From assembly GCF_016903815.1 (NCBI RefSeq), contig NZ_CP069973.1: 64,000 bases of DNA. One strand, 5' to 3'. Below are positions 60,439 to 61,151 of this stretch, piece after piece. The DNA is from Escherichia coli. GTDB taxonomy: Bacteria; Pseudomonadota; Gammaproteobacteria; Enterobacterales; Enterobacteriaceae. The first letter of the stretch is position 1. Each line of letters starts with the position of its first letter. Both the position numbers and the translations under genes were made by a program. The notes beneath the pieces are model-generated. The model did no database searches and was not told the origin of the DNA. It was given only the letters and a program-made list of their open reading frames with translations.

Positions 60439-60730
60439 CTGTGCACCAAAAGCAAAAACTTATCGACGCGGGTTTGAAACTGATTGCAACCGCAAAAATG
60501 CCTGATGCGCTACGCTTATCAGGCCTACGCCATCTCTGCAATATATTGAATTTGCGTGCTTTTGTAGGCAGGATAAGGCGTTCACGCCGCATCCGGCATG
60601 AATAAAGCGCACTCAACAATCTGAAACCCGCCAGTTTACGCTGCCGGGTTTTCGTTAAAAGAGGTGAAACTGACCAATAAGCCGCTTTCTTTTGAGTATA
60701 GTGTCGTGGACAGTCATTCATCTTTCTGCC
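60439..60730. repeat. Partial direct repeats of the rnpB 3' end and its terminator in the rnpB 3' flank
   Basis: aggtgaaactgaccaataagccg (60662-60684) and gtcgtggacagtcattcatct (60703-60723) duplicate rnpB 3'-terminal segments at 60775-60797 and 60805-60825; caccaaaagcaaaaac (60445-60460) repeats the terminator-proximal ctccaaaagcaaaaac (60732-60747). Confidence 0.75.
60501..60598. repeat. REP/BIME palindromic units between yhaC and rnpB
   Basis: gcctgatgcgctacgcttatcaggcctac and gtaggcaggataaggcgttcacgccgcatccggc. Confidence 0.65.
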
Positions 60731-60741
60731 CCTCCAAAAGC

Positions 60742-60765
60742 AAAAACCCGCCGAAGCGGGTTTTT
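60742..60765 (-). terminator. Rho-independent terminator of rnpB
   Basis: aaaaacccgc-cgaa-gcgggttttt palindrome; on the minus strand it is followed by gcttttgg. Confidence 0.8.
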
Positions 60766-60774
60766 ACGTAAATC

Positions 60775-61151
60775 AGGTGAAACTGACCGATAAGCCGGGT
60801 TCTGTCGTGGACAGTCATTCATCTAGGCCAGCAATCGCTCACTGGCTCAAGCAGCCTACCCGGGTTCAGTACGGGCCGTACCTTATGAACCCCTATTTGG
60901 CCTTGCTCCGGGTGGAGTTTACCGTGCCACGGACTGTTACCAGCCGCGCGGTGCGCTCTTACCGCACCCTTTCACCCTTACCTGATCCCGCTTGCGCGGG
61001 CCATCGGCGGTTTGCTCTCTGTTGCACTGGTCGTGGGTTTCCCCCCCAGGCGTTACCTGGCACCCTGCCCTATGGAGCCCGGACTTTCCTCCCCTCCGCC
61101 CGTCTCCCCCGAAGAGGACGACGACGAAGCGGCGACTGTCTGGTCAGCTTC
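60775..61151 (-). ncRNA. rnpB: RNase P RNA component (M1 RNA, bacterial type A)
   Basis: Reverse complement matches the 377-nt M1 RNA as I recall it (GAAGCUGACCAGACAGUCGCCGCUUCGUCG...GGGGGGGAAACCCACGACCAGUGC...CGGUCAGUUUCACCU). Confidence 0.95.

Follow-up and report, generated by a model that had tools for sequence, protein, structure and literature searches.

The tandem repeat behind rnpB in an Escherichia coli genome: a copy-number-variable array in collapsed, partly decayed form

The DNA that follows rnpB, the gene of the RNase P RNA (M1 RNA), in the 64,000-nucleotide stretch of Escherichia coli DNA analysed here (the window) is a copy-number-variable tandem repeat in a collapsed and partly decayed form, which we take to be the repeat that Reed and Altman described in 1983 in the 3' flank of E. 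coli rnpB. In their PNAS report, 113 bp are said to be repeated approximately 3.5 times behind the rnpB gene of K-12, with open reading frames (ORFs). With a probability of about 0.8, this known repeat grows and shrinks by recombination or slippage, and its downstream copies in the window are mostly relics. Each unit would comprise a pseudo-3'-end of M1 RNA (J18/2 and the 3' strands of P2, P4 and P1), a Rho-independent terminator and a spacer, and the size of the array would change by unequal recombination or replication slippage between units.

The features of the locus are collected in Table 1. Because the Rfam model places rnpB where it does, the interval 60439-60774 is the 3' flank of the gene and, rnpB lying on the minus strand, has to be read on that strand. 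The rnpB region is 100% identical in E. coli strain 7/2, where rnpB is annotated; garK lies upstream of rnpB on the same strand, and the yhaC gene on the far side of the array ends at 60384.

Table 1. Features of the rnpB locus in the window, and the core repeats of Cedecea (numbered within their own locus)
Feature	Position	Strand	Basis and remarks
rnpB, RNase P RNA (M1 RNA), class A	60775-61151	-	Rfam RF00010 (RNaseP_bact_a), 318.6 bits, full length 1-367
Promoter-like site of rnpB, GTGACA-17-TATACT	61159-61187	-	Consensus scan, 10/12 matches; immediately precedes the M1 5' end
Repeat unit 1, 101 bp	60723-60823	-	Last 49 nt of mature M1 RNA, 3' trailer, T1 and spacer
T1 intrinsic terminator	60735-60765	-	AAAAACCCGC-UUCG-GCGGGUUUUU, then GCUUUU; fold and inverted repeat
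Repeat unit 2, degenerate, 115 bp	60608-60722	-	Alignment, shared k-mers, sub-threshold Rfam match
BIME, two inverted REP units with linker	60500-60528 and 60564-60597	+ and -	REP consensus matches
Decayed remnant (tail), 75 bp	60419-60493	-	Local alignment score 35
Small ORF from unit ATG, 34 aa	60718-60822	-	
Small ORF from unit ATG, 95 aa	60434-60721	-	Crosses the REP units
yhaC, convergent, AT-rich, with AT-rich hairpin past the stop codon (60381-60410)	59182-60410	+	Bounds the array
Core repeats of Cedecea (locus L091)	~4560-4580 and ~7559-7580		Second followed by a T1-like terminator

The original prediction, made by eye, was that degenerate tandem copies of the rnpB 3' end and its terminator follow the gene, and the matches on which it was built prove to be real and longer than first noticed. 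Positions 60803-60824 and 60702-60723 agree at 22 of 22 nucleotides with a spacing of 101, and 60756-60815 agrees with 60643-60702 at 75% over 60 nt with a spacing of 113, the two spacings arising because the second copy has a 12-nt insertion between the matching blocks. The terminator-proximal motif, thought to recur once more near 60445-60460, does so as an 83% match over 30 nt between 60734-60763 and 60446-60475. The 20-mer GATGAATGACTGTCCACGAC and the 21-mer GGCTTATCGGTCAGTTTCACC occur exactly twice each in the 64-kb window, against an expectation of 0. Gapped local alignment of unit 1 with the whole downstream flank scores 64, compared with 16.1 ± 2.1 (maximum 25) for 500 dinucleotide shuffles, and the shuffles corresponding to the remnant score 14.5 ± 2.2; since both observed scores far exceed those of the shuffles, the similarity reaches well beyond the short strings to which it might have been confined. 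Tandem Repeats Finder reported no array in the flank, because the 12-nt indel and the decay of the copies defeat its detection, and gapped alignment with seed extension was used in its place.

The anatomy of the array, its homology and its decay can be observed directly. The unit starts at GATGAAT inside mature M1 RNA, 49 nt before the M1 3' end, and includes the terminator. Unit 1, with its start motif at 60804-60823, is identical to unit 1 of K-12, and unit 2 shares with it the first 20 nt, without a difference, and the 21-nt 3' strand of P1, with one mismatch. The M1-like part of unit 2 (60663-60722) carries the 12-nt insertion and a CCC-to-AGC change in the P4-forming strand, its hairpin lies at 60624-60651, and a sub-threshold RNase P match of Rfam covers 60662-60774 (model positions 252-367, 19.4 bits). 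As expected for the E. coli rnpB 3'-flank repeat, the array is directly 3' of rnpB and in the same orientation, and its units recur every 113 bp (every 101 bp in the case of the first), but instead of approximately 3.5 well-preserved copies, as in K-12, the window holds a single intact unit, followed by a degenerate one and a remnant. A likeness of the spacer GGAGGGGCAGAAAG to M1 positions ~55-70 was dismissed as coincidental, as spacers differ in other genera.

The interleaving with REP units that had been proposed is also there. A BIME sits inside the array, both in the window and in K-12, with the consensus palindromes, genome-wide repetition and inverted pairing of such elements at 60500-60597; further REP copies occur in the window at 42151, 22189 and 45999, and for a 481-nt query containing the BIME the median number of matching places in an E. 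coli genome is 39. This REP/BIME stretch also has sub-threshold matches in Rfam, to naRNA4 and ES036. The remnant beyond it consists of a P1-like CAGTTTCA, a broken terminator, the spacer motif TTTTTGCTTTTGG and, at 60427-60433, a GATGAAT with which another unit begins, and is found in K-12, O157 and UTI89 as well.

That the repeat had probably been described before was part of the original prediction, and the same locus does hold four units of 113 bp type in K-12, in agreement with the 1983 description. The copy number is polymorphic within the species. K-12 has four units (101 + 113 + 113 bp and a degenerate fourth), behind which come the BIME and the remnant seen in the window; in O157:H7 two units abut the remnant directly, and in UTI89, which has lost yhaC, a single unit does so. 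The deletion junctions of this allelic series lie inside the shared TTTTTGCTTTTGG motif. Among 5,425 complete E. coli genomes the 113-nt unit of K-12 has 1-10 matches per genome with a median of 3, on a scale on which K-12, with its four units and the remnant, scores 5; in 59 evenly spaced chromosomes, 2, 3, 4, 5 and 6 matches were counted in 16, 16, 7, 16 and 4 genomes, respectively. The single-unit B2/UTI89 type accounts for 16/59 of the sampled E. coli, about a quarter, and the allele of the window is present at ≥99% identity in ~194 E. coli genomes. The fewer copies found here than in K-12 are therefore a matter of allelic variation, and strains with one to approximately nine copies would exist because units recombine unequally or slip, a mechanism that we infer from the series. 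In several draft assemblies a contig ends at the rnpB 3' end, and the array of Citrobacter youngae is split over two contigs. The repeat probably breaks short-read assemblies, which makes copy numbers taken from draft genomes unreliable.

The unit is not restricted to E. coli. A 20-mer scan of one genome per species returned at least 120 loci and, among the matches listed, the genuine rnpB genes (~123) all have GAC followed directly by ARRAYCCGGCTTA, with AGAACCCGGCTTA in 115, and extra downstream copies occur only in Enterobacterales. Arrays were found, among the same matches, in Enterobacter sp. Bisph1, Enterobacter sp. Ag1, Pantoea sp. IMH, Pectobacterium betavasculorum, Cedecea, Citrobacter youngae, Enterobacteriaceae RIT691, Erwinia mallotivora, Pluralibacter and cryptic E. 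coli, and remnants in E. albertii and Brenneria; Salmonella Senftenberg has 7 units and Klebsiella pneumoniae 2.5, both in chromosomal records misfiled as plasmids. The same unit type is present in at least 12 genera of three families, and approximately half of the sampled Enterobacterales species have no array, which suggests frequent loss. Other mislabelled records came up at this locus: a 90-kb "plasmid" of Enterobacter roggenkampii (NZ_CP109732.1) carries infB, nusA, ftsH and ribosomal protein genes, and "Salmonella phage S.Kent" contigs (OR851195.1) contain a host rnpB flank. In Pluralibacter sp. UBA7423, ~500-880 nt past the rnpB unit start, the ORF that comes behind the units begins with MTKIKELSLDEMALVSGG..., a candidate double-glycine leader of a microcin-type peptide.

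First and later units differ in a consistent manner. All 16 first units scored (16/16) have 27 nt from the start motif to the core, GGCTTAYCGGTCAGYTTC, with CCC before it, whereas all 29 later units (29/29) have 36-42 nt and xGC before the core; by inspection, the later units of Salmonella and Klebsiella carry the same insertion and G. Both the C-to-G change in P4 and the 12-nt insertion are common to the later units of all arrays scored. The insertion-specific segment of later units is GCUAUACUCAAAAGAAAGC, and the insertion itself reads GCTATACCCAAAAGAAAGC in Escherichia and Salmonella, GCTCTTCATGAAAGAAAGC in Cedecea and GCTTTTTATGAAAGAACGC in Pectobacterium, which are recognisably homologous. 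In the 70 nt downstream of the core, on the other hand, later units have an identity of 0.89 to unit 1 of their own genome, against 0.73 between genomes. Judging from these comparisons, the units evolve in concert with the rnpB of each genome, in the pattern that is expected of unequal crossing-over downstream of the insertion. Such exchange would homogenise the terminator half with rnpB and would never strip the insertion from later units nor add it to the essential first unit.

Terminator quality, as predicted by folding, drops along the array of the window. T1 folds at -19.4 kcal/mol (z = -4.6) on the minus strand, where it is followed by UUUUUGCUUUU, and at -13.9 kcal/mol on the plus strand, since it is palindromic and gives a hairpin followed by U residues there too, being bidirectional in form. 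The hairpin of unit 2 (-19.2 kcal/mol) runs into UUUCAG rather than a U-tract, and the remnant, which would be the third copy, has no stable fold, no better than shuffled sequence (z = +0.54). Among the copies of the window, the GC-rich hairpin and direct U-tract of a Rho-independent terminator are combined in T1 only, which looks like the sole working terminator in this strain, as far as folding can tell; a simple terminator scan missed it, and folding revealed it clearly. The suggestion that the repeats could matter for alternative termination or processing is therefore weakly supported here: a textbook terminator closes the first copy, but the second and third copies offer a hairpin without its U-tract and an unfolded sequence. 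Two hairpin forms, one with a UUCG tetraloop and the other with a long loop (CAGTGTAAGCTG), are found side by side in arrays, and both occur across E. coli, E. albertii and Salmonella; in the window, unit 2 has the long form and T1 the short one. "rnpB T1" is a standard, characterised terminator that has been used in measurements (PMC3643576).

Transcription data are available for K-12, in which the dominant 3' end is the mature M1 terminus at 3270216 (PMC7815308), the only term-seq 3' end reported there under the name rnpB. The 800-nt windows around this position hold 30,653 reads upstream and 11,200 downstream (PMC7815308, supplement 2), and at 3269111 (-), antisense to yhaC, there is a Rho-dependent end with 2,111 reads upstream and 34 downstream (PMC7815308). 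Since there is RNA beyond the mature 3' end, read-through into the repeats is plausible in K-12, and the flank is probably transcribed there at a declining level. Multi-mapping M1 reads could have inflated the downstream count and are an alternative source of the downstream signal, as is a promoter-like site at 60347-60374 (-), TTTAAA-16-TATAGT, which lies just past the repeats and points antisense into yhaC. A promoter created by the insertion, also antisense, was considered and rejected: the TATAGT-like motif of unit 2 in the window is, on reading the sequences, not conserved elsewhere.

Could unit 2 then provide an alternative 3' end for M1 RNA? A functional RNase P 3' end needs the intact 3' strand of P4 (AGAACCCGGCUUA) at the normal distance from P2, and unit 2 has AGAAAGCGGCTTA after the 12-nt insertion instead; its P4-forming strand reads AGAAAGCGG, against AGAACCCGG in rnpB, and lies 12 nt farther from P2. 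Because this strand is mutated and displaced by the insertion, the downstream copies would be unable to give a working M1 3' end, and on this sequence evidence unit 2 cannot be an alternative one. The copies of the window are therefore read as relics of a repeat in which intact units would be back-up terminators at most, and we infer that this allele has next to no function of its own. Unit 1 would be the real end of rnpB, with T1 stopping most transcription; the short trailer of M1 RNA is trimmed by RNase E and exonucleases. Unit 2 would have kept its hairpin and lost its U-tract, the BIME would have been inserted into the array and the last copy would be a relic, so that the downstream copies would, at most, provide weak back-up sites of pausing or termination and serve as recombination substrates.

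Four other readings, and a broader one that joins several of them, have to be weighed against this. The one that survives best, although we consider it rather unlikely, is that selection maintains the array as a tandem, bidirectional terminator or insulator, in which every unit would add one more intrinsic terminator behind a stable-RNA gene with very strong transcription, and which would shield rnpB from convergent transcription coming from the variable downstream genes. Arrays are widespread, T1 can fold into a hairpin on either strand and is followed by U-rich sequence in both directions, and internal later units usually have an intact hairpin and U-run, in RIT691 by means of a compensatory A-U to G-C change, with GC hairpins and U-runs kept in those of K-12, Salmonella, Ag1, Pantoea and Citrobacter. 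Furthermore, coverage in K-12 falls from the 11,200 reads of the first 800 nt to 2,111 farther on, where the final end is Rho-dependent and antisense to yhaC. However, only T1 is intact in the window, the 16/59 sampled E. coli and the many sampled species that have a single unit do so with no evident problem, terminators alone leave the retention of the M1-like half unexplained, and concerted evolution is able to maintain hairpins without selection.

Unlikely, too, is the more inclusive proposal that the later units are an old Enterobacterales family, defined by the 12-nt insertion, the P4-breaking C-to-G change and the terminator, that selection may maintain, whether for serial bidirectional termination or insulation or for a processed RNA, that may also anchor a hot spot of variable and bacteriocin genes, and that was possibly seeded by integration at the rnpB 3' end. 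In the later units of 10 genera, identity is 0.99 in the first 17 nt, 0.79 in J2/4 and the insertion, 0.84 in the core, 0.67 in the trailer and hairpin and 0.61 in the spacer, over shuffled baselines of 0.51-0.58. The persistence of the arrays, the conservation of those 17 nt and the kept hairpins hint at selection rather than pure drift, but concerted evolution confounds the comparison.

The seeding step can also be taken alone: the duplication would be the scar of an attachment site, in which integrative DNA at the rnpB 3' end left a displaced copy that was later amplified by unequal crossing-over. We regard this as decidedly unlikely, in spite of a suggestive pattern outside E. coli. In Cedecea, a 3-kb cassette with PAAR, S-type pyocin and cytotoxic-domain genes lies between direct repeats of the rnpB 3' core, the last unit stopping at the core where the cassette begins; the left-end sequence of the cassette (TTCTTCTAAAACAATACGTTGGTGTG...) is also found in Bisph1 and Erwinia mallotivora, behind the core of the last unit, and in Enterobacter roggenkampii, directly behind rnpB; in the latter, tail genes of a lambdoid prophage start ~1.3 kb past the rnpB 3' end. 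Many arrays end exactly past the core of a truncated last unit, and in E. coli the AT-rich yhaBC genes adjoin the array. As far as the sequences go, the pattern of Cedecea and Enterobacter resembles att-site duplication at a stable-RNA gene. Against this, no integrase turned up beside any array in the flanking ORFs that were examined, the copies follow one another head-to-tail without intervening DNA, and the 64-kb window has no third copy of the core. Direct repeats bracketing foreign DNA were thus seen in Cedecea but not in the window, whose copies are contiguous. Nor was there an rnpB-like attP in phages or plasmids, the matches being misfiled chromosomal records, and the literature searched had nothing relevant on rnpB as attB or integration site, nor on rnpB together with yhaC or a VNTR.

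The yhaB-yhaC pair (58576-60384), which in the window holds the position equivalent to that of the Cedecea cassette, has 27-39% GC, against 53-58% in rnpB and garK, and no Pfam match; UTI89, a cryptic E. coli and Salmonella lack the pair and have the tdcR region directly behind the array. Variable genes seem to have a hot spot in the rnpB flank.

It is improbable that read-through is processed into one stable or regulatory RNA per unit, similar to RtT, which might mimic the M1 3' end and act as a decoy for the M1 5' strand, RNase E or C5. The M1-like block of later units is conserved across genera, with the identities given above for the first 17 nt and the core, there is RNA downstream of rnpB in K-12, and the layout parallels that of the tyrT/rtT repeats (rttR is mentioned in 10.1101/2024.07.17.603846). 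But the copies of the window are degenerate, the only term-seq 3' end named rnpB is that of mature M1 RNA, and none of the 13 predicted pairs (0/13) in the RNAalifold helix of the M1-like part is compensatory, for which reason the helix is no evidence for structure. Apart from the partial RNase P match, no Rfam family was recovered, and RtT itself (RF00391) had no match in the window either at the gathering threshold or at E≤10.

Hardly credible, finally, is the idea that every unit encodes a small basic peptide of its own, preceded by a Shine-Dalgarno site. Such peptides were reportedly proposed in the 1983 report by analogy with Tpr, the peptide of the tyrT repeats. In unit 2 a GGAGG stands 9 nt ahead of the ATG at 60721, the window has ORFs of between 34 and 95 aa, the 38-aa ORFs of K-12 end in an ATGA overlap with the start of the next unit, and the 38-aa sequence is a "hypothetical protein" in a few automatic annotations; nevertheless, in Ag1, Pantoea, Pectobacterium, Cedecea and Bisph1 a stop closes the frame after only 9 codons, the length and end of the ORF shift with unit length, the 95-aa ORF of the window runs through REP elements, curated annotation is lacking, and the ORF begins, start codon included, within sequence of M1 RNA and is hence conserved there for another reason, so that the unit ORFs were rejected as a conserved product, their reading frame not being kept in other genera.

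Returning to the known repeat in collapsed form, the array of the window is real, was correctly interpreted from the letters alone and is already known, and in this strain it is largely a relic. For the window it matters little, and its effects are of a practical kind: draft assemblies are probably broken, read mapping at the M1 3' end is confused and spurious "hypothetical protein" calls are made. Beyond this, a unit type that extends from Pectobacterium to Salmonella without ever losing its insertion is a clean natural case of concerted evolution beside an essential ribozyme gene, and this cross-genus conservation is the only part that might mildly surprise a specialist, being of modest interest.

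Several known systems can be compared with it. The 3' fragments of tRNA and tmRNA genes at the borders of genomic islands (Islander, PMC4383910) are likewise direct repeats of a stable-RNA 3' end, and the repeats of Cedecea bracket a bacteriocin cassette; unlike them, the copies of the window are contiguous, with neither cargo nor integrase, and later units carry an insertion that would be unexpected in a simple displaced fragment. The 178-bp repeats of the tyrT operon (rtT/rttR RNA, Tpr) are also in tandem behind a stable-RNA gene, include the 3' end of that gene and small basic ORFs and have an uncertain function, but they have no sequence or Rfam relation to the rnpB repeats, whose unit carries a terminator, and the likeness is one of layout only. 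Tandem terminators of the rrnB T1-T2 type share the serial arrangement of intrinsic terminators after a very strong promoter and, with T1, a form that is bidirectional, although the additional terminators of rnpB are duplicates of the end of the gene itself, vary in number between strains and have decayed in this allele. The closest system is that of the K-12 rnpB repeats, which agree in locus, unit, orientation and 113-bp period, have an identical unit 1 and share the BIME and the tail; they differ in that K-12 has four units with three good terminators, whereas the window has a single intact unit, a degenerate one and relics, the long-loop hairpin of its unit 2 being found also in E. albertii, cryptic E. 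coli and Salmonella.
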